A stretch of 64,000 bases of DNA from contig CBFDCR010000012.1 of NCBI GenBank assembly GCA_965603365.1, positions 21,935-85,934 on the forward strand, read 5' to 3'. The notes below the pieces were generated by a model. That model made no database searches, was not told the DNA's origin, and saw only the letters and a program-made list of their open reading frames with translations. Origin of the DNA: an uncultured bacterium (GTDB taxonomy: Bacteria; Acidobacteriota; Aminicenantia; UBA2199). A program made the translations under genes and the position numbers. This document shows, piece after piece, positions 13,208-56,137 of the stretch (within the stretch, counting starts at the first letter, position 1; every line of letters begins with the position of its first letter).

Positions 13208-13369
13208 ATGACAACCAGGAAATTTGACAAAAAATTGGTTCTGAACAAGAGAACCGTGTCCCACCTGGACAACAAAGAGATGAAAAACTTACATGGTGGG
13301 GCGAAAGTTACCCAAAGAGAAACACTATGCCCCCCCACCTGCCTTACCTGTAATTGGGAGTGTCTTTAA
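13208..13369 (+). CDS. RiPP-like precursor peptide 1 (double-glycine leader, 4-Cys core), 53 aa
   Basis: Own translation: MTTRKFDKKLVLNKRTVSHLDNKEMKNLHGG / AKVTQRETLCPPTCLTCNWECL. AGGAG lies 7 nt upstream. The leader is paralogous to those of 13399-13551 and 18794-19042. Confidence 0.75.
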   Translation: MTTRKFDKKLVLNKRTVSHLDNKEMKNLHGGAKVTQRETLCPPTCLTCNWECL

Positions 13370-13398
13370 AGCCGGTGAGTCTTTACAAGAAGGTAATC

Positions 13399-13551
13399 GT
13401 GAAGGCCAAAAAACTTAACAAAAAGCTGGTTTTGAACAAAAAGACCATGTCCAATCTGGACACAGAGGAGATGAACCGCATCCACGGCGGAAAATTCACC
13501 TTTGATTTCCCCACCTGTTACTACAGTTGCCATACCTGTTTCTGCCCGTAA
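13399..13551 (+). CDS. RiPP-like precursor peptide 2 (double-glycine leader, 4-Cys core), about 50 aa
   Basis: GTG 13399 gives (M)KAKKLNKKLVLNKKTMSNLDTEEMNRIHGG / KFTFDFPTCYYSCHTCFCP. Start chosen by alignment with peptides 1 and 3. The track shows a TTG-extended 65-aa ORF from 13354. Confidence 0.7.
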   Translation: MKAKKLNKKLVLNKKTMSNLDTEEMNRIHGGKFTFDFPTCYYSCHTCFCP

Positions 13552-18793: not shown

Positions 18794-19042
18794 TTATGGA
18801 CAATAGAAGGTGCACATAGTTATCGTCCAGTAGGTGGGCACGCAGTCGATAATCGTTTCGCAGTAAGGTTCGACGAATGTAATGCAACCGGCTGCTGTAC
18901 ATCTTGGTTCGTTGGTTTGACATTCGATGGGGCAAGTTACTGTAACACGGCCGCCTCTTACTTGACTCAGTTCATCATTACCAAGGTTGGCAATGGTTTT
19001 TTTGTTTAGCACCAGTTTTTTTGAAAACTTTTTTGTCTTCAT
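18794..19042 (-). CDS. RiPP-like precursor peptide 3 (double-glycine leader, 8-Cys 51-aa core), 82 aa
   Basis: MKTKKFSKKLVLNKKTIANLGNDELSQVRGG / RVTVTCPIECQTNEPRCTAAGCITFVEPYCETIIDCVPTYWTITMCTFYCP. SD GGAGGA upstream. The C-terminal CP end resembles peptide 2. Confidence 0.75.
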   Translation of the reverse strand: MKTKKFSKKLVLNKKTIANLGNDELSQVRGGRVTVTCPIECQTNEPRCTAAGCITFVEPYCETIIDCVPTYWTITMCTFYCP

Positions 19043-19255: not shown

Positions 19256-19271
19256 ATTGCTGGAGACGACA

Positions 19272-19574
19272 ATGGCAGAAGTTATACGTATCAATGAAAA
19301 TATAAAAGATATTTTATTAAAACATACCCAAAAGCAGACCCCGGAAGAGAGTCTCAATGAGATATTAAAGAATGAAATCCACAGAAAGATTAAGAGATAC
19401 CTTTTGATGGTTAGACATTTTGAGAGGAAATATAATACTGATTTTGACCGCTTTGAGGCGATGAATAAAGACACCAGGATGGATTATGAAACGGAAAAAG
19501 ATTACTTTGACTGGGACATGGCCGTCACTGCCTTAGAAGATTTACATACGGAATTGACCCAACTCCAGCCATAA
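19272..19574 (+). CDS. hypothetical helical protein (antitoxin-like size and charge)
   Basis: 100 aa from ATG 19272 (MAEVIRINENIKD...). No family recognised. Confidence 0.4.
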   Translation: MAEVIRINENIKDILLKHTQKQTPEESLNEILKNEIHRKIKRYLLMVRHFERKYNTDFDRFEAMNKDTRMDYETEKDYFDWDMAVTALEDLHTELTQLQP

Positions 19575-19581
19575 AAAACTT

Positions 19582-19926
19582 TTTGAGGAACCCAAAATAG
19601 TAATAAGACAAACATCAGATAAAATTGTAGCAACATACGATGAAAAACAATTTTATGCCCTGAACAATGTAATTATTTTAAAACTTAATCATAATATAGA
19701 TCTTAATTACAAATTCATTCTCTGATTTCATCAAAGAAATCAAAAATCAAAAGACATCCCTCTCCAAGAAAGAAGAATTTGACTTAATGGGTCTATTTGA
19801 AGAACAAAAGTCCAACACCCTGACCCTCCAAAAGGAAATTGACCAGGTCGACAGAGAAATCGACCAGATGGTATATCAATTATACGGGCTGACCGACCAG
19901 GAGATTAAGATCGTAGAGGAGTCATA
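19582..19926 (+). pseudogene. remnant of the C-terminus of a type IIG / Eco57I-like restriction-modification enzyme (frameshifted, 5'-truncated)
   Basis: Own translation, frame A 19582-19725: FEEPKIVIRQTSDKIVATYDEKQFYALNNVIILKLN... (TaqI-like specificity-domain pattern). Frame B 19727-19926: ...LQKEIDQVDREIDQMVYQLYGLTDQEIKIVEES* (typical C-terminal tail of these enzymes). Confidence 0.6.
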
Positions 19927-19972
19927 ACGCAATTTTCGGTTGTCCCCTATTTTTCGTCCCGAAGTGTCCGTT

Positions 19973-20311
19973 TCCGGACAAAATTTCTCTGATGTCAGAG
20001 AAAATCTTTCCGACGTCAGATAAAATTTCTCCGATGCCGGACAAAATTCTTCCGATGCCAGACAAAATCTTTCTGATGTCAGACAAAATTTCTCCGATGC
20101 CAGATAAAATTTCTCTGACGCCAGACAAAATCTTTCTGATGTCAGACAAAATTTCTCCGATGCCAGACAAAATCTTTCCGACGTCAGACAAAATTTCTCC
20201 GATGCCAGACGAAATTCCTCTGATGCCAGACAAAATCTTTCTGATGATGTCAGACAAAATTTCTCCGATGCCAGACAAATTTTGTCCGATAACGGACACC
20301 ATTTATCCGTC
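19973..20311. repeat. tandem array B, 16 units of 21 bp (G[TC]CAGACAAAAT[CT]T[TC]TC[CT]GA[TC]) with 42-bp alternation
   Basis: Units counted by hand from 19973 (one 24-bp unit at 20225). Alternating variants are GTCAGACAAAATTTCTCCGAT and GCCAGACAAAATCTTTCTGAT. Confidence 0.9.
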
Positions 20312-20387
20312 GTCGTCGAGTAACATTTACTCGTGGTTGGCAATCACCTCTTAGCAATAACTACTTGAGGATGCCGCCTCAATGCTC

Positions 20388-20416
20388 TTGACTTTTTTGT
20401 TATGGTTCTATACAAT
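20388..20416 (+). promoter_or_regulatory. promoter TTGACTTTTTTGT...TACAAT for the propeller/rSAM gene string
   Basis: TTGACT at 20388-20393, 17-nt spacer, TACAAT at 20411-20416. ATG 20422 begins 6 nt after the -10 box. Confidence 0.5.
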
Positions 20417-20421
20417 ATGAA

Positions 20422-21471
20422 ATGATAGAAAAGAGGGTTCCGTGCATTGAGGAGTGGGAGGTATTGCCCAAAGCTGGGGCGTTTTATAAGAGAGTCACTG
20501 TGTTTATCCTGTTTGCGGTATTACTTCACTGTGCCTTTTATGCCAGCCAGGTGGATTTGCCGGAAGTATTGGCCCCTGCCTCTATCCATGTATACGGCGG
20601 CCGAATGTTCATTGCCGAAGCCGCGGCCATTCACATTTACTCGTTGAAGGACTTTAAACAGATAAAGCAATTTGGTCGGCAGGGTACGGGGCCGGGTGAG
20701 TTTTTCCGGGATACCAGACTCACCGTTTTCCCGGAGAGACTCGTGGTAAACACCTTTGGAAAACTGATCTTTTTTTCCCATGATGGCCTGTTGATGGAAG
20801 AGCACAAAAAAGCCGTTGAAATTATGTGGATATATCCGGTTGGCGATTGTTTTGTGGGGTCTGAGTTTGTACCCAGGGTTCAGAAAATCAACATCTATGA
20901 TGGAAATTTTCATCGTGTAAAAAATATCTTCGAGGGCTCGATCGGCTGGGTCTCATATTTCGAGAGCGGAACCGCAAAACAGGACCTCATTATGGTCAAG
21001 GATTACGCTGCACCGCATGTTTATAAAGATAAGATCTATATTTTTGATTCATCGAAGGGTTTCTTCTTTGCTGTTTTTGACAGCAGTGGAAAGAAGATTT
21101 TTGAGAAGAACATAGAGTATAAACCGCCGAAGGTCAGCGCCGACTACAAGAAGGAGAGGTTGAGACGGCTGGAAGAATCCCCCTGGTTCAAGAGTAGCAA
21201 AGATAGGTTTAATCCTGTATTCCCCGATTTCTTCCCTCCATACCGGTCGGTACGAATTTCAGATGACAGGATATACTTCGTTACTTATCTAAACATCGAC
21301 AATAAAGATGAAGTCGTCGTCACCGATTTAGAGGGCAATCTCATAAAGAAAACGTACATCCCCGCCACCCTTTACGACAAATACATCTTTACCATCAGCG
21401 GCAATAAGGTATACTCTCTAATTGAAGACGACAAAGAAGAATTATGGCAATTACTCATAGGAGATTTATAG
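20422..21471 (+). CDS. six-bladed beta-propeller-like exported protein (paralogue of 29758-30759)
   Basis: FGRQGTGPGEF motif and repeated beta-strand pattern; hydrophobic N-terminal segment VTVFILFAVLLHCAFYA. An alternative start is TTG 20464, preceded by GGAGTGGGAGG. Confidence 0.6.
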   Translation: MIEKRVPCIEEWEVLPKAGAFYKRVTVFILFAVLLHCAFYASQVDLPEVLAPASIHVYGGRMFIAEAAAIHIYSLKDFKQIKQFGRQGTGPGEFFRDTRLTVFPERLVVNTFGKLIFFSHDGLLMEEHKKAVEIMWIYPVGDCFVGSEFVPRVQKINIYDGNFHRVKNIFEGSIGWVSYFESGTAKQDLIMVKDYAAPHVYKDKIYIFDSSKGFFFAVFDSSGKKIFEKNIEYKPPKVSADYKKERLRRLEESPWFKSSKDRFNPVFPDFFPPYRSVRISDDRIYFVTYLNIDNKDEVVVTDLEGNLIKKTYIPATLYDKYIFTISGNKVYSLIEDDKEELWQLLIGDL

Positions 21472-21487
21472 GAAAAAGGAGGCATCG

Positions 21488-21673
21488 ATGATAAAAAATT
21501 TCTTTGGAGGAGTTGAAGAGCCGATGACCCCGGAGTCGGTTACCCTGGGTTGTGGTTGTTGGTGCAGTTGCGAAGGGGCCTGTGGCGATCAAAACGGCAA
21601 TAGTACCAGCATGACTGATTTGAATTGCTCACCGTTTCCTAAAGTTGCAATTATTTTGCCACCCCCAGCTTAA
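21488..21673 (+). CDS. Cys-rich small peptide, candidate rSAM/SPASM substrate
   Basis: MIKNFFGGVEEPMTPESVTLGCGCWCSCEGACGDQNGNSTSMTDLNCSPFPKVAIILPPPA. Strong SD AAAGGAGG 5 nt upstream. Lies 51 nt upstream of the rSAM/SPASM gene. Confidence 0.6.
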   Translation: MIKNFFGGVEEPMTPESVTLGCGCWCSCEGACGDQNGNSTSMTDLNCSPFPKVAIILPPPA

Positions 21674-21724
21674 ACTCAGATTCATTTGTTGTAAATCTAA
21701 GGCGACGAATAACAAAATCAACTT

Positions 21725-23311
21725 ATGCCACCACATCATATGAAAGTACTGGAAAGCAAAAATAAAGATAATGCTGACCCTCAGATTTGGGCCAAACTCT
21801 TTGAAATTAACGAGAAAAGATATTGTTACGATGTGGGGACTAACCATATTATGGAAGTTGATGATGTCTTGTATGAGGTCTTGAAAAAATACAATTATTC
21901 CAATAAAAAGAGGATAGCCGCAGATTTGTCATCCAGATATTCGGTTGAGGATATTGAAAGAGCGGTTGGCGCGGTGGACGAATTCAGCCAGGCCAAAGGG
22001 GGATTTATACTTCAAAAAAGGATTCGTCTGGCGTTTCCTTTCAGCCAGCGTGAATATAAGTTTCTTCTGGAACATTTTCTCAGTCATCTGATTTTGAATA
22101 TTACAGAAGACTGCAATTTACGTTGTAAATACTGTGCGTTCAGTGGGAGTTATAAATATAGAAGGACTCACAAAAAAGTTTCGATGCCATGGCCGGTTAT
22201 TCAGAAGGCAGTTGATTTCTTTATCCCCCGAACCGTTTTGAGGATAAATGAATTAAAGAGGCCTGTGTCTTTTGGCTTTTATGGAGGAGAGCCCCTATTG
22301 GAGCCAGGGAAAATGTTCAAAACGGTGGAATACGTTCGGCACAGATGGCCGGATATTTTCCCTGAGATTAATTTTGCCATCACCACAAATGGGACTTTGC
22401 TTTCCCGAGAAATAATTGACCCATTAATAAAGTATAATTTTGGGATTACTATAAGTCTGGATGGTTACAAGGAGTTACACGATAAGAGCCGCATTTTTAT
22501 GAAGGGAGGGGGAACGTACGACATAATAATGAAAAACATTGATTTAATTAAAAAAATTGACCGTGAGTATTTCAGACAAAGAGTATTTTTTGCTGGGGCC
22601 ATGTCCCCCCCATATGATCTTCACGGAATACTTGAATATTTTCGCAGGGAGTTCCCAAACCAGGAGATCCCAAATGTGTATAGCCTGGTGGATGAATTTG
22701 ACACCGATTTTTTCGATAATTTCGATATGGATGAAGAGAATAGAAAATATGCACAGCAATCCTTTGAAGCCAGATGTGAATTTATAAAGAAAAAAATGGA
22801 AGGTGAGGATGATCCCATATTATCTGGTTTTATTCAAGATAATACAATGGACATCCATAACAGGAAACTTTTCAGTCTCCCGGAAGCGACATATCCCAAT
22901 GGTTGTTGCCCCCCAGGATTAAAAAAACTTTTTGTGGACACGGAAGGAAGATTTCATGTATGTGAGAGGGTGAATTCATATTTTAGCATTGGAGATCTGG
23001 ATAATGGATTTGATATCCCCAAAATATTCGATCTAATAGACGGATACTCAAAAGCAGCCGATCACTGGAAATATTGCTGGGCGATCAGGTTTTGCAACTC
23101 TTGTTTTGTCTCCGTTATTGAGGGCGATCATTTCTCAAGGGAGAGAAAAAAGACAATGTGTGAGAGAACAAAAGGCGACATCTTAAGTCGGCTGGTTACG
23201 TATGTCTATCTGGCGGAGCATAATCCCCGACTATTTGATAAAAAGTATTTCAGAGGGGAAGATACGGTGGGGGATCTGGTAAAATACCTCCAGCAGAATA
23301 AGTTACATTAA
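21725..23311 (+). CDS. radical SAM/SPASM-type peptide-modifying enzyme
   Basis: ITEDCNLRCKYCAF (CxxxCxxC), FYGGEPLL, and a C-terminal Cys cluster (CCPPG...GRFHVCERV...CWAIRFCNSC) like the SPASM auxiliary-cluster domain. About 100-aa N-terminal extension. Confidence 0.8.
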   Translation: MPPHHMKVLESKNKDNADPQIWAKLFEINEKRYCYDVGTNHIMEVDDVLYEVLKKYNYSNKKRIAADLSSRYSVEDIERAVGAVDEFSQAKGGFILQKRIRLAFPFSQREYKFLLEHFLSHLILNITEDCNLRCKYCAFSGSYKYRRTHKKVSMPWPVIQKAVDFFIPRTVLRINELKRPVSFGFYGGEPLLEPGKMFKTVEYVRHRWPDIFPEINFAITTNGTLLSREIIDPLIKYNFGITISLDGYKELHDKSRIFMKGGGTYDIIMKNIDLIKKIDREYFRQRVFFAGAMSPPYDLHGILEYFRREFPNQEIPNVYSLVDEFDTDFFDNFDMDEENRKYAQQSFEARCEFIKKKMEGEDDPILSGFIQDNTMDIHNRKLFSLPEATYPNGCCPPGLKKLFVDTEGRFHVCERVNSYFSIGDLDNGFDIPKIFDLIDGYSKAADHWKYCWAIRFCNSCFVSVIEGDHFSRERKKTMCERTKGDILSRLVTYVYLAEHNPRLFDKKYFRGEDTVGDLVKYLQQNKLH

Positions 23312-23375
23312 TCGTGAATCCCGAAATAACGATCAATAGATCTCAAAATCATAGAATAGTTTAAAGAGGTTGACG

Positions 23376-25256
23376 ATGCCCAAAGATGGGATAAAACGAA
23401 TAGTGATGCATTGGATGCCGCCGGCAATGATTACGACCCCTTCCCTTTCCTACTCTATATTAAAAAGTTTCATGAATCAGCATGGGTATGATAGCGAGAT
23501 TATTTATTGGAATCAGTTGATATTTAAAATCATGAGACCATTCTTTTATGGTGGGAGGCTTCAAGATTCTGCTGTAGACAATTTATTTCTTGCACCCTTT
23601 TTATTGGAGATTTCGGATAAGTACAGTGACACCCTTAAAAAGAAAAGGGTTTTATCTTTTTTGCGGAGTAATTTATTGAAATTTACAATCAAGGAGGATG
23701 AAGTCGAAGAATATATTTGGGATATTAGGGGAAAAATCGGGCGCTTAGTGGATTCCATTCTGGCTGAGATGGAGGCCGAGAATATTTTCCTGTTCGGATT
23801 TTCCAGTAAATTTTTTCAATGGCTCCCCGGCATGTTACTGGCGGAAAAGTTAAAAGAAAAGTTCCCCGGGATTAAAATAGTAATTGGCGGGTTTGGAGAT
23901 CAGAACGCAGCCCGAGAAATACTTCACCTGTGTCGATATTTTGATTTTGCCGTGTGGGGGGAGGGGGAATATCCACTTCTCGGACTCTGCCAGCGATTGG
24001 AAGATGGTGGCAATCGTTTCGAGTCGATCCCCCGGTTGTTATATTGGGGGCAAGGGGAGGAGATTAAGGCCACCTCATCCCGCAGCCGCTATTTAAATTT
24101 TGATAACTATATGTATCCTGACTTTTCAGATTTTATCGAATCTTATAACAATGAAGAATTGAGAAAAAATATTTACTTTCCCATTGAATCCTCCAGGGGC
24201 TGCCACTGGAACCGCTGTAAATTTTGTACTTTGAATGTGGGGTATAAATACAGAACCCGATCCCCCGAAAGTATTGTTCGGGAGATTGAATTTATGTTTG
24301 ATAAACATAAAATACACCGTTTTCGATTTGCAGACAACGATATTGTGGGAAAGAGCATAGGGCAGTTTGAAAGATTACTGGAGATGGTCACTGCATCATC
24401 ATTGAGAAATCGGGTCAAGTATGACCTCTATGCAGAGATTGTCCACCACGGATTCAATTCCCGGCTTATAAAAAAAATGGCAGTCGCGGGTTTTACCCAC
24501 GTTCAGATCGGCTACGAAGCCATTACCGATGGCTTGTTGAAAAAGATTGATAAAAAAGCAGATTTCGCCGATCATATCCTTTTTGTAAAATTCGCTTCAA
24601 AATATGGAATTTCTATAACCGGAGCCAACATCTTACGGGGGATTATCGGCGAGACCGAAGACGACGTTCTGGAAGGTATTCATGATTTGACATTTCTAAG
24701 ATTCTTTTTAAAAGATGCACCTATTCAGTTTTATCATTATATAAGTGAGCTGCGACTTTCTGGAGGGAGCCGGTTTTTCCAGATGTTGAGCCTGGAAGAG
24801 CGTAAAAAATGGAACGCTAGCGCCATGACTTATTTTATCCCCCAGTGGTTCATCGTGAAAGATAACGATCGACGTTTTGGGCTGTTTTCCTTTTCCAGGG
24901 AGTTGGATAATAAAGTCGAATGGGAAAATTTTGAAAAGTTAAATAACTTTCTCGAAAAAACCGAGGTAACGTATCAAATACTTGAAAATAACGGGATTTA
25001 TTATTACAGTGAATTCATGGCCGGGAAGCGGGTGAATTATATCGTGTTCGATGAACCGGAATATTGGCAGGTATTAAAAGCTGCCAACAACGAGGTAAAA
25101 TCTTTTAAAGAAATATTCGCCGAAGTCAAGACAAAATTCCCCGGTATTATCGAAAAATATCTGGTTGAGATTATTGAAAAACTAAAAAATGATTTTTTGA
25201 TTTACTCCAACAAAGATTTAACGAGAATTGTATCAGTCATGGACACCGGTGAATAG
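23376..25256 (+). CDS. B12-binding-domain radical SAM protein (RiPP-maturation rSAM type)
   Basis: N-terminal Rossmann-like region, then ESSRGCHWNRCKFCTL (CxxxCxxC variant typical of class B rSAM). ATG 23376 follows AAGAGG; the track starts at TTG 23370. Confidence 0.75.
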   Translation: MPKDGIKRIVMHWMPPAMITTPSLSYSILKSFMNQHGYDSEIIYWNQLIFKIMRPFFYGGRLQDSAVDNLFLAPFLLEISDKYSDTLKKKRVLSFLRSNLLKFTIKEDEVEEYIWDIRGKIGRLVDSILAEMEAENIFLFGFSSKFFQWLPGMLLAEKLKEKFPGIKIVIGGFGDQNAAREILHLCRYFDFAVWGEGEYPLLGLCQRLEDGGNRFESIPRLLYWGQGEEIKATSSRSRYLNFDNYMYPDFSDFIESYNNEELRKNIYFPIESSRGCHWNRCKFCTLNVGYKYRTRSPESIVREIEFMFDKHKIHRFRFADNDIVGKSIGQFERLLEMVTASSLRNRVKYDLYAEIVHHGFNSRLIKKMAVAGFTHVQIGYEAITDGLLKKIDKKADFADHILFVKFASKYGISITGANILRGIIGETEDDVLEGIHDLTFLRFFLKDAPIQFYHYISELRLSGGSRFFQMLSLEERKKWNASAMTYFIPQWFIVKDNDRRFGLFSFSRELDNKVEWENFEKLNNFLEKTEVTYQILENNGIYYYSEFMAGKRVNYIVFDEPEYWQVLKAANNEVKSFKEIFAEVKTKFPGIIEKYLVEIIEKLKNDFLIYSNKDLTRIVSVMDTGE

Positions 25257-25359
25257 CGAAGGGTGGGGGAGGAGTCGGATTTGTTGACATGGGGGGGGAA
25301 TTAATTTAAAATTTGTTTTGGTGTGAAATTGTTTTAATAAGTAGAGGTTGAAGCGGTCT

Positions 25360-26100
25360 ATGAGAAGTGTGGTTCAGGTAATAAAAAAGTCGGGTTCGTC
25401 GAAACAGATGGTGATGTTTCCCTTTGGGGGCGGCAGCGGCTATTCGTTTATGGAACTGGTCAAGGAGATTACGGCGGATGCCGAAGTCATCGTGATCAAT
25501 CCGCCGGGTCACATGTTCAACAACGGCAAGCCCCTGGAGAGTATCGATGCCATGGCCTATCTCTATTCAAGGGAACTCCTCCCTCTTTTAAAAGAGAACT
25601 GCCTGTTTTTCGGCCACAGCATCGGCGCACTGGTAGCCTATGAGATGTGCCGGGACTTAGAACGGAAACTGAATATTAAGAAACTGATCATCTCCAGTGT
25701 CAATCCCCCCCACTGTGTGATGGCTGAGGTGGATATGCATTCCGGCATGGATACGCCGCAGTTGATTCAAAAATCGATAAAAATGGGCGGCATGCCGGAG
25801 ATCTTCAAGGAAGATTCCGATCTGCTGGAGAAGTTCATCGCCGGTTTGAGGGCGGATTTGAAGGCCCTGGAGAGATATGACGGCGGTAAATGGGCCGATG
25901 CCGGTAAAATAGGGACCGGCGGCCTGGTATTATACAGCGACGGGGATTATATTGTCGATCCGCTGAAGGTAAGAGAGTGGAACCGGTACCTGGATTGTTC
26001 AGATTTCGTCCAATTTTCCGGCGACCACTTCTACCTGTTCGAGCCGGCCAATCTAAAAGCGGTGGCCCGGCTGCTATCTACCCAGATCAATATGGGGTAG
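25360..26100 (+). CDS. type II thioesterase-like alpha/beta hydrolase
   Basis: MVMFPFGGGSGYSF (like FPYAGG), nucleophile elbow GHSIGA, C-terminal GDHFYL (His). Start uncertain (TTG 25348, ATG 25360 or ATG 25408). Confidence 0.7.
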   Translation: MRSVVQVIKKSGSSKQMVMFPFGGGSGYSFMELVKEITADAEVIVINPPGHMFNNGKPLESIDAMAYLYSRELLPLLKENCLFFGHSIGALVAYEMCRDLERKLNIKKLIISSVNPPHCVMAEVDMHSGMDTPQLIQKSIKMGGMPEIFKEDSDLLEKFIAGLRADLKALERYDGGKWADAGKIGTGGLVLYSDGDYIVDPLKVREWNRYLDCSDFVQFSGDHFYLFEPANLKAVARLLSTQINMG

Positions 26101-26127
26101 ACCGCTTCACCATAAGGGAAGGTAAAC

Positions 26128-27363
26128 ATGAAAAAGTGGGGAATTTATTTTGTTTTTTTTCTATTTTTTAGCCTATCTGCAACGGCCGAAGAGATCCACG
26201 TTCTGGCCGCCAATGGGGAGTTGACCAAAATTCAGGCCTTACTGCAAAAGCAGCCGGAGTTGGTAAACCGTCTGGATCAGGACAAATGGACGCCCCTGCA
26301 CTTTGCCGCTCTTGGGGGCCATCTTAAGGTGGCGGCGTGCCTGGTTGACCGGGGAGCAGAGGTCAATGCCGTGGATAAATATGGGTTGGCGCCCCTGGAT
26401 CTGGCGGCACTGAAAGAGTCCGACCCCCTGGTAGATCTGCTGATCCGCCGGGGCGCCGAAATACGCTCCCGGGAGGAAATATTGGATCGTCTGGGACAGC
26501 GCACCGAAATACCGGTGTTAAACTTCAAGAAGGAGTTGGTGGAACTGCTGGCCAGTAAGGGAATCACCCCGGAGGCGGGCTCCCGGAGCTTCAGCGCCAT
26601 TACCCTGGTGATGGCCATCATGAAGGTGAGGGAGGATGTGGCCGGTATTAAGGATTTAAAGGAGTTGGACCAGAGGCCGACGTTTCATCCGGGTACGACG
26701 TCGCTCCACCAGGCGGCCGAAAAAGGGGATTTGCCCCGGGTCAAATACCTGGTTCAGTCGAATCCCCGGGCGGTGAATGTGGGAGATGAGTTTGGCATTA
26801 CCCCCCTTCACTTTGCCGCCATCAACAACCAAAGGGAAGTCGTCGAATATTTGATTGCCCAGGGAGCCCTGATAAATACCAGAACCCACAAGGGTATAAC
26901 CCCTTTATACGGGGCCTGCAGCGAGGGCCGTAAGGAAATCGCAGCATTGCTGATTGCCAGGGGTGCGGTTGTCAATGCCGCCACTGTGGAGGGCGCTACC
27001 CCCCTTCATGCTGCCCCCACCCGGGAAGTAGCGGAACTGCTGATCAAGCATGGGGCAAAGGTGATGGCTCTGAACAAGTATGGCTATACCCCCCTGCACA
27101 TCGCCGCCCTCTACGGGCATACCGCAGTGGCCAGGTACCTGATCTCAAGGGGGGCGGGGGTCAATCAAAAGAACGTGTTTGGCTGGACCCCGTTAATGGA
27201 GGCGGTCTACGGTAACCATGGGGACGCGGTGCTGCTGCTGCTGGAAAAGGGGGCCTACGTTAATGCCAAAAATCAAAGCGGTTCCACCGCGCTGGAGATT
27301 GCTACTATTTTAAAAAGCCGTGAGATAGCCGCTATCCTCCGGAAACACGACGCCTTTCGCTGA
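26128..27363 (+). CDS. secreted ankyrin-repeat protein
   Basis: Signal peptide MKKWGIYFVFFLFFSLSATA and multiple TPLH[FI]AA...G....LL..GA..N repeats. Confidence 0.85.
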   Translation: MKKWGIYFVFFLFFSLSATAEEIHVLAANGELTKIQALLQKQPELVNRLDQDKWTPLHFAALGGHLKVAACLVDRGAEVNAVDKYGLAPLDLAALKESDPLVDLLIRRGAEIRSREEILDRLGQRTEIPVLNFKKELVELLASKGITPEAGSRSFSAITLVMAIMKVREDVAGIKDLKELDQRPTFHPGTTSLHQAAEKGDLPRVKYLVQSNPRAVNVGDEFGITPLHFAAINNQREVVEYLIAQGALINTRTHKGITPLYGACSEGRKEIAALLIARGAVVNAATVEGATPLHAAPTREVAELLIKHGAKVMALNKYGYTPLHIAALYGHTAVARYLISRGAGVNQKNVFGWTPLMEAVYGNHGDAVLLLLEKGAYVNAKNQSGSTALEIATILKSREIAAILRKHDAFR

Positions 27364-27368
27364 GGCTC

Positions 27369-27830
27369 TTATTGGGTGCGATCGGCATCCGGGTTATTGA
27401 ATGCTGCCAATTTTTGTTTTCGATTGCTGGTGGATATCCCCCCGGTATAGGGTAAATATATGACCTTCACCCCCACCCGGCACAGCTTTTCTTCGAATTT
27501 TTTGAAGCGTTCGGTATTGTACCAATCGTCGCCGATAAACATCACATCGAATTTTAATTTTTGCCACATTTCGTATTTGTCCAGGTGATCCTGGGGGATC
27601 GCCAGATCCACGTACTTGATACTCTGGACGATTTCGAGCCTTTCGGCGAAGGGCACCACCGCCCTCGCCCCTTTATACCCCACCAGCTCATCGATGGTAA
27701 CGCCCACGATTAAGCGGTCACACAGGGCCTTTGCCCTCTTTAATATATTTAAATGCCCGATGTGAAACAGGTCGAAAACGCCGCTGGTATAGCCGATAAC
27801 TTGTTTTTTTTCTTTCTTGTCCTTTTTCAT
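27369..27830 (-). CDS. cytidylyltransferase, glycerol-3-phosphate cytidylyltransferase (TagD)-like
   Basis: GYTSGVFDLFHIGHLNILKRAK (HxGH) and the ...STS... RTxGxST-like C-terminal motif. 153 aa. Confidence 0.75.
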   Translation of the reverse strand: MKKDKKEKKQVIGYTSGVFDLFHIGHLNILKRAKALCDRLIVGVTIDELVGYKGARAVVPFAERLEIVQSIKYVDLAIPQDHLDKYEMWQKLKFDVMFIGDDWYNTERFKKFEEKLCRVGVKVIYLPYTGGISTSNRKQKLAAFNNPDADRTQ

Positions 27831-28036
27831 TCTTTACCCTTTTCCTATATTCACAAGGTCATATAATAAAACATCCGCCATTATTGTGTCAATGCTTTGC
27901 CCCATTCTTATCGATATTTTATTTCGTTTTTCGTTTTCCCTTGAAATGTAGGGGCAAATTTAATAAAATGTTCGTCTATAAGATTAATTTTTTGTTAATG
28001 AAATTTGAAAAAAATGGAGCGAAGAGTCGAGAGACC

Positions 28037-28831
28037 ATGGCTGTAGAAAAGAAATTCACCTATAAGTATGATTTTCGCAAATCATTGAAGGAAGATTCCA
28101 GATATCCCATCCTGAATTATTTCCGGGTGGAGCGATACTTTACCCGGCCGCTGGCGTCGTTGATCGTGAAGGCCGTGATAAATACCCCCATCACCCCCAA
28201 CCAGATTACGGTTTTTTCCTTTTTCCTGGGGATTTGTGCCGGTATCTGCCTTTCCCTCGGTAAGCCCGGTTACTTTATGGCCGGCGGCATCCTGGCCCAG
28301 TTGTCCTCGATTTTTGACTGTTCCGACGGCATGCTGGCCCGGGCCAGGAATAGGTGCAGCGATTACGGCGCCTATCTGGATCTGTTCCTGGACCGCTTTG
28401 TCGATCTTTTCCTGCTTGGTGGCGGGGCGACCGGCTATTTTGTCTATTCAAAAGATTTAACATTTTTTATTGTATCCATCTTTGGCGTGGCGCTCTACTT
28501 TTTGCAGGTCTCCCTTTATTATCTCACCAAAATCTATAAGAAGAATACAAAGTTCGGTGAAGCCGCCGAAGCCCGGGGCTTATACATTTTTTTACTCTTT
28601 GTCTTTTCGCTGGCCAATCAAATGAAGCTGTTGATTTTAATTTATTTAACGGCCACGGTCAGCAACAACATCATCAAGATTATTAATTTAATCAGGTTGG
28701 GTATACTGAGTAAGAAGTCTGCTCTTCCTCCTTCTCAGCATGGGGATCAAACCGACCCCCGCCCACAGGAATCCCAATATGCGCCTGAAGATCACCAGGG
28801 CCACGCCGAAATCCATGGGAATACCCAGTAA
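28037..28831 (+). CDS. CDP-alcohol phosphatidyltransferase family protein
   Basis: DCSDGMLARARNRCSDYGAYLDLFLDRFVD matches DGx2ARx8Gx3Dx3D. Start uncertain (ATG 27998 or 28037). The 3' end overlaps the convergent gene by 144 nt. Confidence 0.75.
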   Translation: MAVEKKFTYKYDFRKSLKEDSRYPILNYFRVERYFTRPLASLIVKAVINTPITPNQITVFSFFLGICAGICLSLGKPGYFMAGGILAQLSSIFDCSDGMLARARNRCSDYGAYLDLFLDRFVDLFLLGGGATGYFVYSKDLTFFIVSIFGVALYFLQVSLYYLTKIYKKNTKFGEAAEARGLYIFLLFVFSLANQMKLLILIYLTATVSNNIIKIINLIRLGILSKKSALPPSQHGDQTDPRPQESQYAPEDHQGHAEIHGNTQ

Positions 28832-29683
28832 AGTAAATAGGGAGAGGTAGGTGACCTCGTAGATGCCTAAGGAGGCCGGCAGCCCGGGAAGTAAATAGGC
28901 AAACGATCCCAGGGTGATCAACAGGAAACTGTCCAGGAAGGTGATGTGTCCGGCACCGATGAATAAAAAGTTCACATAAATCTCCCCTGTCCACCACAAG
29001 ATCATCATGACGTATAAAATAAAGACCCCCGGAAAGGTTTTATGGTGATGGGCATAAAAATCGGAAATATAGGCATCGGTTTCCCGGATCTTTTGCCGGT
29101 TTTTCTCCAGGAATTTGAATTTTAATTTGACTTTTTTCAATAGATCGATGAGCCAGATAAAGAGGCCTTTTTTCTGCTTTTTGAGGATAAAAGCCCCTGA
29201 AAGGACGACCACTGCCGCCAGGGAAATAAACACCAGTCTCTGGCCGCCCGACATGGGGATCTTGATCAGGGCGATGGCCACCCCGATGACGACCAGCAAG
29301 GTGGTGGCCAGGAGTTCGATGGTTTTGTCCACCACTGCCGAAGCCAGGACTTTTTTGGGGGGAGCCGATTCCACCATTAAGACTTTAAAGGCTTCGCCGC
29401 CTATTTTGGAAGAGGGCGTCAGGGAGCCCACCGCATGGCCGGCAAGCCGGGCCCGCAGCAGATGCCACAGCGGGATGCGGCTCTCATACCGGGCCAGGAT
29501 GATCTGCCAGTTGAGGGCCCGGATCAGCCAGAATACGAGCCTCAAACAGAACAGGATCAGGAAGTTTTGCCAGGACATCTTCTGGATAATCTGCCAGATA
29601 TAGCGGGGGTCCAGTTTAACCAGAATATAAATAAACAGCCCCAGCCCGATAAAGGCCAGGATTCTTACAATTTTTTGCCGCAT
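28688..29683 (-). CDS. flippase-like / lysylphosphatidylglycerol-synthase TM-region (UPF0104) family membrane protein
   Basis: 331-aa polytopic protein. N-terminus (KIVRILAFIGLGLFIYILV) and overall pattern are typical of UPF0104. Confidence 0.55.
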   Translation of the reverse strand: MRQKIVRILAFIGLGLFIYILVKLDPRYIWQIIQKMSWQNFLILFCLRLVFWLIRALNWQIILARYESRIPLWHLLRARLAGHAVGSLTPSSKIGGEAFKVLMVESAPPKKVLASAVVDKTIELLATTLLVVIGVAIALIKIPMSGGQRLVFISLAAVVVLSGAFILKKQKKGLFIWLIDLLKKVKLKFKFLEKNRQKIRETDAYISDFYAHHHKTFPGVFILYVMMILWWTGEIYVNFLFIGAGHITFLDSFLLITLGSFAYLLPGLPASLGIYEVTYLSLFTLLGIPMDFGVALVIFRRILGFLWAGVGLIPMLRRRKSRLLTQYTQPD

Positions 29684-29757
29684 GCGGCTCCTTCACATTT
29701 GGGAATGATATTTATACCAGATCTGAATGTTAAATTCAAATCCCCAAACTGCGGCTT

Positions 29758-30759
29758 CTATTCATCCAGATTGTGCAGGTGAAGCTCCCACTCTTCTTCG
29801 TCCATGCTTTCTATGAGTTGATAAAGTTTGCCGTTTTTGACGGCAAAGGGATAGAGATCGGCGGAACTCATGTTTTTAAGGGGCAGTAATACCCTTTTCA
29901 AGAGTTTTCCTTTCAGATGAAATACCAGAATTTCGTAGTTTTCGTTCTCTTTTTTCCAGGTTATGGCATAGACTTTTTGGCCGTCGGCGGCGATCTCCCG
30001 CACCGCCGGGTAGCGGTCGGGAAATTTTATGGGTTTTAACATCTCGGAAAACTGTTTGATCTCGGGGTCTGTCTTTAAATAGTGGATGACCCGATTTTTG
30101 TCCTTTTCCGTGACTTTGATTCTCCGGTACTCTTTCGTTATGGCGTACAGTTTTTGGCCGTTTTCGTCGAAAACATCGATCACGAAGTCTTCTTTCACCG
30201 CGAGCAATAGCTTATCCCCGCAAATATCGGCAGACAGGGTTCTGGCAAAGGCTTTCGTACCCTTGCCCGGTTGAAATTCGACCTCCCATCTGGCTACCTC
30301 TTTTTCCTTTTTTACGGTTGCATCGTAGATGTTCATGGTGTTGTACAGGGTGCCGTCATCCACCACGATTCCGGCCCCGATAAATTTTTTCCCCAGCACC
30401 CGAAATCTCCGGTGATTGGCAGGGGTCCTCATCTCTTTGATAAATTTCCCCTCTTTTGTCAGGTACGAGAGCTTGCCCACGCTGTTGACGATTATGTGAT
30501 CAGCCTGGATGTCGATGAGGTAAATCTTATCCTTAAATTCTGCCGGGCCTTCCCCCTCCCGGCCGAACTGCTGGAGCAACCGGTAATCCTCCAGGGAATA
30601 GACAAAGACCGTTGTCCTGTCGGCCACATAGAGTCTATCTTCATCCACGGCCATGGCCCCGGGTTTCGTCAACTGGCTGAAGACCGCCACCCTTTTACCG
30701 AAAACCTGGGTTGAAAGTATAAAAAACAAGGCCAATAACAATAAAAGTAGTTTTTTCAT
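29758..30759 (-). CDS. six-bladed beta-propeller-like exported protein (paralogue of 20422-21471)
   Basis: Signal peptide MKKLLLLLLALFFILSTQVFG and FGREGEGPAEF motif. Start set at ATG 30759 behind AGGAGG. The track extension to 30879 has no support. Confidence 0.65.
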   Translation of the reverse strand: MKKLLLLLLALFFILSTQVFGKRVAVFSQLTKPGAMAVDEDRLYVADRTTVFVYSLEDYRLLQQFGREGEGPAEFKDKIYLIDIQADHIIVNSVGKLSYLTKEGKFIKEMRTPANHRRFRVLGKKFIGAGIVVDDGTLYNTMNIYDATVKKEKEVARWEVEFQPGKGTKAFARTLSADICGDKLLLAVKEDFVIDVFDENGQKLYAITKEYRRIKVTEKDKNRVIHYLKTDPEIKQFSEMLKPIKFPDRYPAVREIAADGQKVYAITWKKENENYEILVFHLKGKLLKRVLLPLKNMSSADLYPFAVKNGKLYQLIESMDEEEWELHLHNLDE

Positions 30760-30816
30760 GTTTCCTCCTGGACTTTTTAAATGAAAGCAAAGCTTTTTTT
30801 GTATCATTGTGCTATA

Positions 30817-30845
30817 ATAATAGAACAATAATGCAAATTTGTCAA
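30817..30845 (-). promoter_or_regulatory. promoter module (copy 2): TTGACA-17 nt-TATTAT, near-identical to 17690-17745
   Basis: Minus strand: TTGACAAATTTGCATTATTGTTCTATTATTATAGCACAATGATACAAAAA, compared with TTGACTTTTTTGTATTATTGTTCTATAATAATAGCACAATGAAACAAAAA at 17690. Confidence 0.55.
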
Positions 30846-30899
30846 CCCCAAAATTTTTTTTCTTGACTGCCCGAATCATGAACCGCGAATCAGGAAAGA

Positions 30900-31730
30900 T
30901 CAGGCCCCATCGATTCTGGTGAGTGCGTCTCTGGCGGCCATGGGCAGGCCGATGTGGCCGGGGGGGACCTGGGGTTCCCGGGTGTTGATGCGGATTAAGG
31001 TGGCATTATTGCCGGGGATCATGCCCTGGGCAGTCATGCGTACAGTGGGCACACCGGTGCCGGCGCCGCACTCCACAATCGCCATGGGTATTCGCCGGTT
31101 TTCCCTCACCCACCGGTTTAATCCCTGCTGCTGAAGGTCGGTGTTATGGGAGATCCAGTTCCAATCGCCGAACATCAGGATGTTGGGCCTGGCCATATCG
31201 CCGCAATGGGGGCAGCGGGGTAGGGGGGCCTGGGCCTGCATGGTCTCTTCATCTACCCTTACCCCAATATCTCCTGCCTCCCAGATGGCCTCGCCGCAGG
31301 GAGCCGAGCACTGCAGGTGGTGGATGGAGCCGTGACACTCCACCAGCCGGTCTTTGGCGAAACCGGCCTGCTGGAACTGGCCGTCCACGTTGGAGGTAAA
31401 GACAAAGTAACCGCCCGGTTTTTCCTCTCCCCATTTCAGCAGGATGTCGAATCCCTTATGAGGCGTGGTGCTGCGGTACAAATTCAAACGGTGACCGTAA
31501 AAACCCCAGGCTAAGTTTGGCTCCTGTTCAAACCAGTGGGGATTGGCCATGTCGATGAAACTGTAGCCCAACCTGGCAAAGGGTGGATAGGCCTTCCAGA
31601 AGCCCTGGTTGCCCCGGAAATCCGGCAGTCCCGAATCCACCCCCATGCCGGCCCCGGCACAGATAAACAGCGCCTCCGCCTCCCGGATACACCCTGCCGC
31701 CTGCCTGATCGATGTCTCTAAGTGTCCCAT
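30900..31730 (-). CDS. Sir2-family NAD-dependent deacylase
   Basis: GAGMGVDSGLPDFRG, zinc Cys pairs CHGSIHHLQC and CPHCGDMARPNILMFGD. Start set at Met 31730. The upstream extension runs into repeat R3. Confidence 0.8.
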   Translation of the reverse strand: MGHLETSIRQAAGCIREAEALFICAGAGMGVDSGLPDFRGNQGFWKAYPPFARLGYSFIDMANPHWFEQEPNLAWGFYGHRLNLYRSTTPHKGFDILLKWGEEKPGGYFVFTSNVDGQFQQAGFAKDRLVECHGSIHHLQCSAPCGEAIWEAGDIGVRVDEETMQAQAPLPRCPHCGDMARPNILMFGDWNWISHNTDLQQQGLNRWVRENRRIPMAIVECGAGTGVPTVRMTAQGMIPGNNATLIRINTREPQVPPGHIGLPMAARDALTRIDGA

Positions 31731-31774
31731 GTCCAGACCATTTATAACAAAAAAAACCGGAGAAATCAACAAAA

Positions 31775-31826
31775 GGCAAAACAGCCAACAACCAATAGCC
31801 AATTAATCATTGAATGTTGTTTGGCA
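31775..31826. repeat. partial copy R3 of the palindromic heptamer-repeat element
   Basis: GCAAAACAGCCAACAACCAATAGCCAAT matches the core of R1 and R2. Confidence 0.5.
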
Positions 31827-31872
31827 TAAGATGGAGAGTTTGCTATAATTATCTTTTTTTGATGGAGGATCA

Positions 31873-33288
31873 ATGGAGAAGCATGAAATATTTCAACTGA
31901 AGATTACGCTGGTCTATACGGATCCGCCTATATGGCGGCGCTTCCTGGTGGAGAACAATATTACCTTTGCTTCCTTGCATAGGGTGATTCAAGATGTCAT
32001 GGGCTGGGAATTCGATCATGCCTGGGAGTTTGAGATGAAAAAGCAGCGCATTCAGATGCCGGGAAGGAGTGAATCCATTTTCGGTGATTTTGAAAGTGAA
32101 TGTGCCGATGAGGTGGAGCTCCGGGATAAATTGGTGCGGGTGGGACAAAAATTTAAGTATACTTACGATTTCGGCGACGACTGGAAGCATGAGATCCTGT
32201 TTGAAAAGCGTTTGCCTGTGGAGGAGGGCCAATACTACCCCGTCTGCCTGGAGGGGGAGAGGGCCTGTCCACCGGAAGATTGCGGCGGTATCTGGGGCTT
32301 TTATGAAAAACTAAGGGTCATCCAGTCTTCCCCCCAAGATGATGATGACTGGGCCCGGGAGTGGATGGGGGGTTTTGATCCCGACGCCTTCGACATAGAT
32401 GAAGTAAACAAGGCCCTCAGGAGCGGCCGCAGCCTGGGGGGGCACGATGAAGAGGTGGTGGAAAATTTTCTCGAGTTTGCCGGTGAGCCTTTTACATTGG
32501 AGAAGCTCTTCGAGGAGGCCGGCATCGATCCCACAGGGGAACATGCCGCCAGCGTACGGACTGACATCTGGGGAGATGATGAACTCGTCCTGGATCAGGA
32601 TAAGGCATATCCCTCGAGCTACGTCTTGAAGAACGCTTCGATTTTGATCCGGCCCGACGCATTTGAGATCGAACAGGGAATACTGATTCCCGGACAGCGC
32701 CTGTTTCCCTTTTATTATGAGGATGAATATGTTGAAGGCTTTGAGTTGCAGTATAAATACGAGTCCCTGGCAGTAAAAGGGATATCCCTTGAACAGGGAG
32801 ATGTGGATCGCTATTTCGGTTTAATGGCAGATGAGGGCATTCCCCTGGCCGATTTGGACGACTACCCTGAGGAGGAGGGAGAAGGAGAGGCGGTGCGGCT
32901 AATGGTCTGGGATTTAAGCCCCCTGTATCGCACCTGTCAGTTTGAACCGGGCCAGGCTGTCCTGGTAAAGCCCCTCGATATTGGTACCCGCGAGTTTGAG
33001 GTCAAATACTTCTCTCCCCAGAAACTGGAAAAGAAGTGGCCCCGAATCGAGCAGGCGGGGGCACAATTTTTAGAGATTCTAAAAGAAGTGCTGCAGCGAG
33101 ATATCCCCTTTACCTCCATTACCCACCAGATGCTCTATGCCTATTACGAGTTCGGCAAAAAGCACGGTTGGGAACTCCCCTTGCCGGACCTCGACGCCCT
33201 CCTGAAACAGGCCCCCCACATCACCGCCTTCACCCCGGAAACCGGCCCCAAACGCCTCAGCCTCACCACCGACCCACATTCCACCTGA
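31873..33288 (+). CDS. pRiA4b ORF-3-like family protein with long C-terminal extension
   Basis: N-terminus IFQLKITLVYTDPPIWRRFLVENNITFASLHRVIQDVMGWEFDHAWEF is the hallmark of this family. Confidence 0.7.
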   Translation: MEKHEIFQLKITLVYTDPPIWRRFLVENNITFASLHRVIQDVMGWEFDHAWEFEMKKQRIQMPGRSESIFGDFESECADEVELRDKLVRVGQKFKYTYDFGDDWKHEILFEKRLPVEEGQYYPVCLEGERACPPEDCGGIWGFYEKLRVIQSSPQDDDDWAREWMGGFDPDAFDIDEVNKALRSGRSLGGHDEEVVENFLEFAGEPFTLEKLFEEAGIDPTGEHAASVRTDIWGDDELVLDQDKAYPSSYVLKNASILIRPDAFEIEQGILIPGQRLFPFYYEDEYVEGFELQYKYESLAVKGISLEQGDVDRYFGLMADEGIPLADLDDYPEEEGEGEAVRLMVWDLSPLYRTCQFEPGQAVLVKPLDIGTREFEVKYFSPQKLEKKWPRIEQAGAQFLEILKEVLQRDIPFTSITHQMLYAYYEFGKKHGWELPLPDLDALLKQAPHITAFTPETGPKRLSLTTDPHST

Positions 33289-47505: not shown

Positions 47506-47569
47506 TAGCCCTCTACAGGCTTGACTTTTGGTGCTGGTTTTTAATAGAATGGGTTTTCAGGGGAAAAAT

Positions 47570-55700: not shown

Positions 55701-56137
55701 ACCTGGTGGAGGAGGCGGTGTTGCTGGAGTTTGACCGCATCTCCGAGCGGGGCGGCGTACTGGGGGCCATGGAGACCAATTACCAGCGGGGCAAGATACA
55801 GGAGGAATCCCTCTATTACGAACAGTTGAAGCAGACGGGCGAGTATCCCATCATCGGCGTCAACACCTGGCTCTCTTCCGAGGGATCCCCTACGGTCATC
55901 CCCGGCGAGGTGATCCGGGCCAGCCAAGAGGAGATGCAATTTCAACTGCAGACCGTGGAGAGCCTGCACCAACGAAATGAGGCTACCGGCCCCCAACTGC
56001 TGGAAGAGCTGCAGCAGGTGGCCGTCAATAACGAAAATATCTTTGAAAAACTGGTGGAGGTCACTAAATACTGCTCCATCGGCCAGATCACCGGCGCCCT
56101 CTACAAAGTAGGCGGCCGCTACCGCCGCAATATGTAG
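52748..56137 (+). CDS. icmF: fused isobutyryl-CoA mutase (B12-binding domain, MeaB-like G protein, mutase catalytic domain)
   Basis: N-terminal [10 protein letters not shown] (DxHxxG B12 motif), central [14 protein letters not shown]-loop and NKFD, and a C-terminal methylmalonyl-CoA-mutase-like TIM barrel. 1129 aa. Confidence 0.9.

Follow-up and report, generated by a model that had tools for sequence, protein, structure and literature searches.

The locus examined here raises the question of whether six adjacent genes on one strand form a single biosynthetic unit. It lies in a stretch of 64,000 nucleotides (nt), hereafter the window, from an uncultured member of the Aminicenantia (contig CBFDCR010000012.1, positions 21,935 to 85,934). 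An initial annotation had proposed that a promoter at position 20388 drives six genes of an operon for a ribosomally made and post-translationally modified peptide (RiPP): a beta-propeller protein, a Cys-rich precursor peptide, a radical S-adenosylmethionine (rSAM) enzyme with a SPASM domain, a cobalamin (B12)-type rSAM enzyme (B12-rSAM), a thioesterase-like hydrolase and a secreted ankyrin-repeat protein. All six open reading frames (ORFs) were found on the forward strand where they had been placed, and the motifs that had been read in them were seen again in the translations. The operon itself, however, resolved into a four-gene cassette and two unrelated resident genes.

The evidence for this division came from two relatives without the cassette, L017 (JGI 3300068089) and L018 (Logan SRR33577239), which are the two further assemblies that carry the other members of the thioesterase's 90%-identity protein cluster. 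BLASTN aligned window positions 25277–33283 with L017 9918–17929 at 92.7% nucleotide identity (8 kb of downstream synteny) and a repeat array at window positions 19977–20345 with L017 9503–9889, and the adjacent stretches were likewise found in L018. In L017 the repeat array was followed by the thioesterase promoter within about 30 bp. Direct reading of the junctions placed the window-specific segment, an insertion or deletion relative to the close relative, at about 20364–25276. This 4.9-kb segment contains four genes along with a single promoter-like site; its left edge lies 24 nt before the −35 element of the site at 20388 and its right edge about 20 nt past the B12-rSAM stop codon. The thioesterase and ankyrin proteins of the window were 93% and 89% identical, respectively, to the copies in L017 and L018, and neither gene was found within 10 kb of the other cassette loci. 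The six-gene unit did not hold, because a relative about 93% identical has the thioesterase and ankyrin genes but no cassette, and because the two genes are missing from all other cassette loci and differ from the cassette in composition.

The compositional difference was marked: GC content was 0.409 in the cassette segment against 0.54 in the thioesterase-ankyrin pair, and GC at third codon positions (GC3) was 0.41–0.54 in the cassette genes against 0.66 in the pair, with a break at the junction. Furthermore, the pair has its own promoter-like site outside the cassette (TTGACA-17-TAAAAT, 25284–25312, forward strand, 11/12 consensus match), which is conserved in cassette-less L017. The direct succession of repeat array and thioesterase promoter in the relative, the conservation of this promoter and the GC and GC3 differences fit a separate origin of the cassette. 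Of the single promoter proposed for all six genes, what remained was the site within the cassette (TTGACT-17-TACAAT, 20388–20416, forward strand), a 10/12 consensus match only. Since a scan gave 29 sites of this kind against 18.7 expected, that site is by itself weak evidence. The first four genes are nevertheless not a product of chance, since homologues of each stand in a conserved arrangement elsewhere.

The cassette was either gained in the genome of the window or lost from the relative, at a variable spot. Neither direct nor inverted terminal repeats were found at its ends, and no integrase or transposase gene was seen near it among the ORFs and domains inspected. The left junction abuts a 21-bp tandem repeat array (19977–20290, 14.8 copies, consensus GACAAAATTTCTCCGATGCCA); the same array is present in L017 (9390–9860) and L018 in different copy number, and it may mark a recombination-prone spot. 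To the left of the array, the stretch with the short ORFs at 19787–19927 and 19257–19574 had no alignment to the relative, which indicates a variable region. One of these short ORFs, with the ending ...LYGLTDQEIKIVEES, resembles a leftover C-terminal piece of a restriction-modification type gene.

The precursor gene (21488–21673) has a strong ribosome-binding site (RBS; aaaggagg) 6 nt upstream of its start and ends 51 nt upstream of the SPASM gene. It encodes 61 amino acids (aa) with a MIKNFFGGV leader, a GCGCWCSC core and a hydrophobic, Pro-rich tail. In a 12-member family of such precursors, M1, I2, F5, G7, G8, G21, C22, C24, C26, C28, L45 and C47 were invariant, giving a MIxxFxGG leader and a CxCxCxC core followed by hydrophobic, Pro-rich tails; Asp, Asn and Thr residues were conserved behind the Cys block, whereas the Trp of the core was not conserved. 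The strong RBS and the conserved family with its invariant CxCxCxC motif upheld the earlier view of this peptide as the cis-encoded candidate substrate. When the window peptide was searched by HMMER against all of 1.84 billion representative proteins, only 10 matches had E values up to 0.001. The precursors matched no NCBIfam family, one related peptide matched the StsA model weakly (E 0.0085), and no further genuine CxCxC precursor-type ORF was present in the window.

The gene downstream (21725–23311; a public gene call starts at 21740) encodes, to judge from its sequence, an rSAM/SPASM peptide maturase with an N-terminal domain resembling a RiPP recognition element (RRE). Its product matched PF04055 Radical_SAM at 67.6 bits and carries CNLRCKYC at residues 130–137, in which C130, C134 and C137 were invariant in 31 sequences. 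Its C-terminal cysteines are at 394/395, 413, 451, 457, 460 and 479. The SPASM signature of the clade, C-x12-G-x4-C ... C-x2-C-x5-C-x2-C ... C, is represented in the window copy by C395-x12-G-x4-C413, C451-x5-C457-x2-C460 and C479. The enzyme aligned with CteB (5wgg) over residues 33–459 (E 3.6e-24), covering the RRE region, CxxxCxxC and the SPASM motif; residues 33–110 align to the N-terminal region of CteB, and the Pfam PqqD/RRE model gave no match. Full-length NCBIfam matches were obtained with the models for CcpM (TIGR04068, 314.8 bits against a cutoff of 500), RumMC (NF035951, 229 against 720), the lachnocin maturase (NF038170, 196 against 550) and QhpD (TIGR03906, 131 against 453). TIGR04148, a model that the initial annotation had put forward for checking, also matched over the full length at 150.8 bits against 300, and the cis-encoded peptide had no TIGR04149 match. 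With all these scores below the cutoffs and no family for the precursors, the locus matched no curated family, in keeping with the initial annotation, which had recognised no named RiPP class in it. So did the reported absence of class-defining enzymes: no LanB/C, YcaO, C39 peptidase, nonribosomal peptide synthetase (NRPS) or polyketide synthase (PKS) domain was found in window ORFs of at least 130 aa, and an ABC ATPase is encoded at 2–715, 20 kb from the locus.

The fourth cassette gene (23376–25256, or from 23370) encodes what its predicted structure identifies as a class B cobalamin-type rSAM enzyme with an N-terminal Rossmann-type domain and an rSAM core fold. The protein contains GCHWNRCKFC and matched Radical_SAM at 53.1 bits and, weakly, the B12-binding domain PF02310 at 24 bits. 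TIGR03975 scored 197.4 bits against a cutoff of 281.85 and covered model positions 2–419 of 606, the alignment stopping at residue 432 and leaving the last ~190 residues unmatched. An AlphaFold2 (AF2) model of high predicted quality (predicted local distance difference test score, pLDDT, 92.8; predicted template modelling score, pTM, 0.91) had its best PDB fold matches in OxsB, TsrM, TokK, MgmA and CysS (E 2e-17 to 1e-12 over ~540–650 columns), all of them cobalamin-dependent rSAM enzymes and mostly methylases, and a profile search against PDB likewise gave OxsB (6.8e-8). At its C-terminus the model has ~115 residues that fold into three strands and then three helices; this beta3-alpha3 domain, which we read as an RRE-like winged helix, may be a peptide binder. 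About 200 full-length proteins, down to 32% identity and some of them from Carboxylicivirga and Labilibacter isolates, make up the family. In accord with the initial annotation, profiles, folds and conserved loci together point to an rSAM-dependent RiPP-type cluster with both a SPASM maturase and a cobalamin-type enzyme.

The first cassette gene ends at 21471; its likely start is the TTG at 20464 after GGGAGG, with an alternative ATG at 20422, and its product is identical to the 335-aa protein P0129. Structure prediction identifies the 20464–21471 product as a secreted six-bladed NHL-like beta-propeller: the AF2 model (pLDDT 91.9) has six blades and one helical insertion, and Foldseek returned generic NHL domains (Mei-P26, Brat and TRIM71) and BamB at template modelling (TM) scores of 0.5–0.6. 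Profile matches to DUF5128/TolB_like were sub-threshold only, and a family of 62 members was found among 5.8 billion proteins. In 56 sequences compared, G76, P77, E79, G108, P258 and G291 were invariant, E79 being the sole polar one; they look structural (a GxGPGEF motif), and no catalytic-type His, Ser, Asp or Cys was among them. This lack of conserved catalytic residues makes it most likely that the propeller binds the mature peptide and does not cut it. Every propeller homologue has an N-terminal Sec signal peptide or a lipobox, so the propeller would act outside the cytoplasm and both rSAM enzymes must act inside. Of the two exported scaffold-type proteins proposed for the operon, the propeller, whose gene accompanies the SPASM gene more constantly than any other, belongs to the system, whereas the ankyrin protein falls outside it. 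As a separate observation, a second, resident six-bladed propeller paralogue with a signal peptide is encoded on the reverse strand at 29758–30879; it is 26% identical to the cassette propeller, is kept in the cassette-less relative (91% amino acid identity) and has no adjoining peptide or rSAM gene.

The SPASM enzyme belongs to a clade of about 30 relatives, 38–56% identical and nearly all metagenomic, and the cassette genes have relatives in Acidobacteriota, Aminicenantes and further uncultured lineages. We compared the nine closest contexts, in which the SPASM enzyme is 48–56% identical (L001, L002, L019, L020, L021, L040, L041, L042 and the window itself). Those uncut by contig ends all have a propeller gene (39–53% identical), a gene for a 55–64-aa precursor and the SPASM gene side by side. 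A B12-rSAM gene (48–57% identical) joins in six of the nine, the window counted; the loci named with this gene are L001, L002, L019, L020, L041 and L042. In L002 the propeller gene stands between the two rSAM genes, indicating that the gene set is conserved and its order variable. Propeller, precursor and SPASM genes occurred together in L001, L002, L019, L020, L021, L040 and L041, and the same trio was present in the more distant L003–L008, L023, L024, L032, L038, L039, L043 and L044; altogether the three co-occur in about 20 metagenomic loci. The Cys-rich peptides that the initial annotation had envisaged beside the rSAM genes were thus retained at homologous loci.

By a hidden Markov model (HMM) of the propeller, this protein adjoined the SPASM enzyme in 19 of 21 loci with a SPASM enzyme at least 36% identical, among them Aminicenantes and Clostridia-labelled metagenome-assembled genomes (MAGs) as well as L043 and L044; the other two, L022 and L027, are cut by contig ends. 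The same HMM found no propeller near SPASM relatives below about 35% identity. CxCxC peptides, for their part, adjoin even SPASM relatives that are only 27–35% identical. In the distant loci, 2–4 tandem precursors begin with MI(K)xF/L and carry a CxCxCxC block, usually followed by GY/DG-rich sequence. Genome and metagenome collections scanned with the SPASM clade profile yielded just 14 and 18 loci, respectively, with no further member of the B12 subclade. The order in L007, L008 and L024 is peptides, SPASM, propeller, a small ORF and an ABC exporter (ABC_membrane plus ABC_tran; L007 3649–5403, L008 3609–5582, L024 7566–9539), which supports export of the peptides. An 824-aa ORF in L024 that appeared to be a SPASM-propeller fusion was rejected, since comparison with L008 revealed a frameshift into the overlapping propeller frame with loss of the last SPASM Cys. 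In two related metagenomic contigs (L001 4024–8394, L019 2257–6550), genes that may serve regulation and processing lie divergently upstream of the cassette; they encode a trypsin-like protease, a LytTR-type two-component system and an uncharacterised protein of 403 aa. The JGI sample of cassette-less L017 also contained a locus with different precursor, SPASM (44% identical) and propeller genes (L043 406–3353).

From the gene content, the boundaries, the co-occurrence, the folds and the signal peptides we infer the following chemical steps, export and propeller role. The RRE-like N-domain of the SPASM enzyme would bind the precursor through its MIxxFxGG leader, and the enzyme would turn the four cysteines of CxCxCxC into thioether crosslinks with downstream acceptor residues. 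These links could be of the sactionine or the ranthionine type and would probably be nested as in StsA; the Asp, Asn and Thr conserved behind the Cys block make ranthionine-type links equally possible. The cobalamin-type enzyme would then methylate one or more unactivated carbons, methyl transfer to the peptide being the likely activity of this predicted methylase. The product would leave the cytoplasm and meet the Sec-exported propeller, which would bind it as a carrier, receptor or immunity partner. As pre-existing neighbours with a promoter of their own, the genes for the thioesterase and the ankyrin protein would have no part in the pathway. We hold with reasonable though not strong confidence that the segment at ~20364–25276 is a self-contained four-gene RiPP-type cassette that works in this way and does not involve the thioesterase and ankyrin proteins.

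Several observations weigh against this reading. All NCBIfam matches of the cassette enzymes fell below the curated cutoffs. A lenient Pfam search for RRE domains in the SPASM N-domain and the B12-rSAM C-domain found nothing significant, and homologues alone gave hints (Lant_dehydr_N, E 0.018; HxlR winged helix-turn-helix, E 0.057). OxsB, the top structural match of the B12-rSAM enzyme, is not a methylase, so that methylation is likely and not certain. The B12-rSAM family is also not confined to the cassette, since it occurs alone in Carboxylicivirga: in Carboxylicivirga linearis (JAGUCO010000002.1; L045 9429–11833) a homologue 38% identical follows a 151-aa ORF without a Pfam match, and no SPASM, propeller or CxCxC peptide gene was found near it. 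Neither a protease nor an exporter is encoded in the cassette, which leaves leader removal and export without a gene there. Between the B12-rSAM and thioesterase genes the prediction gave no terminator, so read-through co-transcription is possible. Finally, Trp448 (tgg, 23066–23068) replaces the first Cys of the CX2CX5C motif in the SPASM enzyme, a residue that is Cys in 30 of 30 relatives and in CteB, and the window copy may therefore be impaired.

The constancy of the propeller beside the SPASM gene allows another account, in which the secreted propeller would have the crosslinked peptide, matured by the rSAM enzymes, as a small subunit or tightly bound ligand, following the logic of quinohemoprotein amine dehydrogenase (QHNDH). 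The export of the propeller, its lack of conserved catalytic residues and the full-length alignment of the SPASM enzyme to QhpD all suit this account, and the order of peptides, SPASM, propeller and ABC exporter in the distant loci parallels that of the qhp operon (qhpC/D/B/F). However, no haem subunit, QhpE-like protease or QhpG-like flavoprotein was found in the cassette or the homologous loci; the core Trp is not conserved, which makes a cofactor of the cysteine tryptophylquinone (CTQ) type unlikely; and the QhpD score lies far below its cutoff. The QhpB propeller is seven-bladed, whereas the fold here is six-bladed and NHL-like. Several loci also have 2–4 different precursors per propeller, as one would expect of a set of products more than of a single subunit. 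We therefore consider this account possible but unlikely. A bolder form of it is that the peptide/SPASM/propeller trio is a new two-component module, in which the crosslinked peptide, B12-methylated in one subclade, works only when bound to the extracytoplasmic propeller; this we offer tentatively, as a proposal with a minor share of the probability. By analogy, such a module might follow the logic of the gamma and beta subunits of QHNDH with a different fold and no haem, and its product would not be a free antimicrobial RiPP, an idea that we likewise put forward as speculative.

The substitution at residue 448 also raises the possibility that the cassette of the window is decaying or inactive. 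By homology, the Cys replaced by Trp448 should ligate an auxiliary Fe-S cluster, so its loss from a position otherwise always Cys would remove a cluster ligand, and the cassette is dispensable, being absent from a close relative. Against decay, the four ORFs are intact and of full length with good RBSs, a second cysteine (C394) stands beside C395, and some SPASM and twitch enzymes function with fewer cluster ligands. A single-base difference in a metagenome assembly could, moreover, be an error or a minor variant. The tgg codon may thus reflect either a weakened enzyme or an assembly variant, and we judge inactivity of the cassette to be rather doubtful.

Much less survives of the original six-gene operon, in which the thioesterase and the secreted ankyrin protein would act on or with the modified peptide. 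The six genes do share one strand with short gaps throughout (confirmed as 16, 51, 64, about 91–103 and 27 nt), and the missing terminator would permit read-through. The presence of both genes in the cassette-less L017 and L018, with promoter and synteny unchanged, their absence near other cassette loci and the GC3 contrast nevertheless make such an operon very unlikely. The hydrolase at 25360–26100 (or from 25348) is predicted to be type II thioesterase-like: PF00975 scored 116.3 bits against a cutoff of 26.4, in line with the earlier assignment, GHSIG is at residue 89, GDHF is present, and the top PDB matches were SrfAD, YbtT and RifR. No NRPS, PKS or carrier-protein domain that could provide such an enzyme with an assembly line was found in the ORFs of at least 130 aa across the 64 kb of the window. 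The product of 26128–27363 is a predicted ankyrin-repeat protein (Ank_2, 240 bits) with a signal-peptide-like N-terminus and TPLH[FI]AA repeats. Both proteins are best regarded as resident neighbours outside the cassette.

Three dispersed peptides with GG leaders, at 13208–13369 and 13354–13551 on the forward strand and at 18794–19042 on the reverse strand, had been suggested as additional substrates. They are genuine ORFs rich in Cys and Thr, with leaders of the form KKLVLNKKT...GG, and lie on either side of a TRAP-TatT transporter operon. The full-length match of the SPASM enzyme to TIGR04148, a maturase model paired with TIGR04149 GG peptides, and the presence in L004 of a GG-leader peptide beside MIK/CxCxC peptides speak for the suggestion. 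However, their KKLVLNKKT..L...GG leaders are unrelated to MIxxFxGG, all three scored above the cutoff of NF038153, a model of class I lanthipeptide leaders (and around that of TIGR04149), and they lie 1.5–7 kb outside the inserted segment. Every homologous locus has its own MIxxF...CxCxCxC precursor, and a GG-leader peptide was nearby in one of about 20, L004 being the only such case among the fetched cassette loci. The suggestion was therefore not sustained, and a role for these peptides as cassette substrates is highly improbable; they are probably non-substrates, and with no LanB/C or fitting maturase in the window they are orphan precursors there. That the SPASM enzyme is instead a protein maturase of the anaerobic sulfatase-maturating enzyme (anSME) type acting on the propeller is close to negligible in probability: the propeller always adjoins its gene and anSME structures are among its PDB matches, but TIGR03942 scored 84 bits against 349 and only over the rSAM core (residues 125–282), no sulfatase gene adjoins, RRE-bearing peptide maturases are the best full-length matches, the propeller carries a Sec signal and lacks a conserved Cys/Ser target motif, and a conserved precursor family is present.

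Downstream of the cassette, L017 and L018 keep the order of the window: thioesterase, ankyrin, divergent cytidylyltransferase, CDP-alcohol phosphatidyltransferase, lysylphosphatidylglycerol (LPG)-synthase-like, second propeller paralogue, SIR2 and PRiA4. The stretch 25360–29683, in which the thioesterase-ankyrin pair stands beside the cytidylyltransferase, the CDP-alcohol phosphatidyltransferase and the LPG-synthase-like membrane protein, may be a lipid head-group modification cluster. Elsewhere in the window we noted a Ser/Thr kinase with an Lcl_C domain (6711–9113), a 929-aa protein with NACHT and formylglycine-generating enzyme (FGE)-sulfatase domains (47528–50317) and an IcmF-like fused B12 mutase/MeaB protein (52748–56137), the last of which indicates that the organism uses cobalamin. 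An Rfam scan of the entire window matched only a tRNA at 58021, with neither a cobalamin riboswitch nor another RNA element near the cassette, and a PADLOC scan of the six proteins for defence systems returned generic rSAM-core and ankyrin similarity and nothing else.

Radical-SAM thioether peptides are a known class, and judged by the profiles the cassette family stands outside every curated family tested; it appears rare and most like a pathway for sactipeptides or ranthipeptides that includes tailoring by a B12-rSAM enzyme. The CcpM, RumMC and lachnocin maturases of Firmicutes share with it an RRE-like, rSAM and SPASM architecture, an adjoining Cys-rich precursor and near-whole-protein profile matches, but the scores lie far below the cutoffs and the precursor family is different. 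To our knowledge, a secreted propeller and a B12-rSAM enzyme are not among the features of those systems. CteB, the ranthipeptide maturase of the thermocellin system, is the best solved-structure relative, and the conserved Asp, Asn and Thr would suit ranthionine-type acceptors, whereas the SCIFF and PapB models matched only the N-terminal half of the cassette enzyme, below their cutoffs, and the core motif differs. The QHNDH system (QhpC, QhpD, QhpB and QhpF) resembles the cassette in its small Cys peptide, SPASM thioether synthase and exported propeller, and in the ABC exporter seen in the distant relatives of the cassette; it differs in the haem subunit, protease, flavoprotein and conserved Trp for a quinone cofactor, all of which the cassette lacks, and in the fold of its propeller. 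The cassette B12 enzyme shares its Rossmann-type N-domain and rSAM core with TIGR03975 (the PoyB/PoyC type) and with TsrM, TokK, MgmA, CysS and OxsB, but the TIGR03975 score is sub-cutoff, the cassette C-terminus is unmatched and homologues also occur outside RiPP cassettes.

The closest precedent for the core is StsA, whose CxCxCx4GxGxG core receives three nested Cys-to-Gly sactionines from StsB (PMC10288494). The StsA/StsB sactipeptide system of Streptomyces sparsogenes, like BlaA/BlaB, resembles the cassette in its alternating core cysteines (CxCxC against CxCxCxC here) and in a single rSAM/SPASM enzyme that makes the crosslinks with an RRE, as would be the case here. The nested hairpin of Cys-to-acceptor thioethers in StsA has been demonstrated experimentally. 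StsB groups with MftC, while the best matches of the cassette enzyme are CcpM, RumMC and the lachnocin maturase, and the RRE of StsA/StsB is a separate protein, in contrast to the fused RRE-like region here. The StsA acceptor motif GxGxG is absent from the cassette precursor, which has four core Cys and a fifth invariant Cys, unlike StsA. In the passages searched, the StsA/StsB paper mentions no propeller, and B12 only for the unrelated PoyB group (PMC10288494). Literature searches on CcpM/TIGR04068, on propellers with radical SAM enzymes and on methylated sactipeptides or ranthipeptides found no paper on the cassette family, the CxCxC of StsA being the sole precedent.

Relative to the curated models and the literature searched, three features are new: the invariant alternating-Cys CxCxCxC core, the strictly co-occurring secreted six-bladed propeller and, in one subclade, the cobalamin-type rSAM enzyme of an uncharacterised family. 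For cloning of the cluster, four genes and not six should be taken, and reversion of W448 to Cys is worth considering. The locus will be of interest mainly to RiPP and radical-SAM specialists. If the chemistry proceeds as proposed, the product would be a methylated, multiply thioether-bridged scaffold, and the roughly 200-member B12-rSAM family would gain its first function. If it is true, the assignment might also provide a first function for one branch of a large family of exported six-bladed propellers in the Fibrobacteres-Chlorobi-Bacteroidetes (FCB) group and related bacteria.

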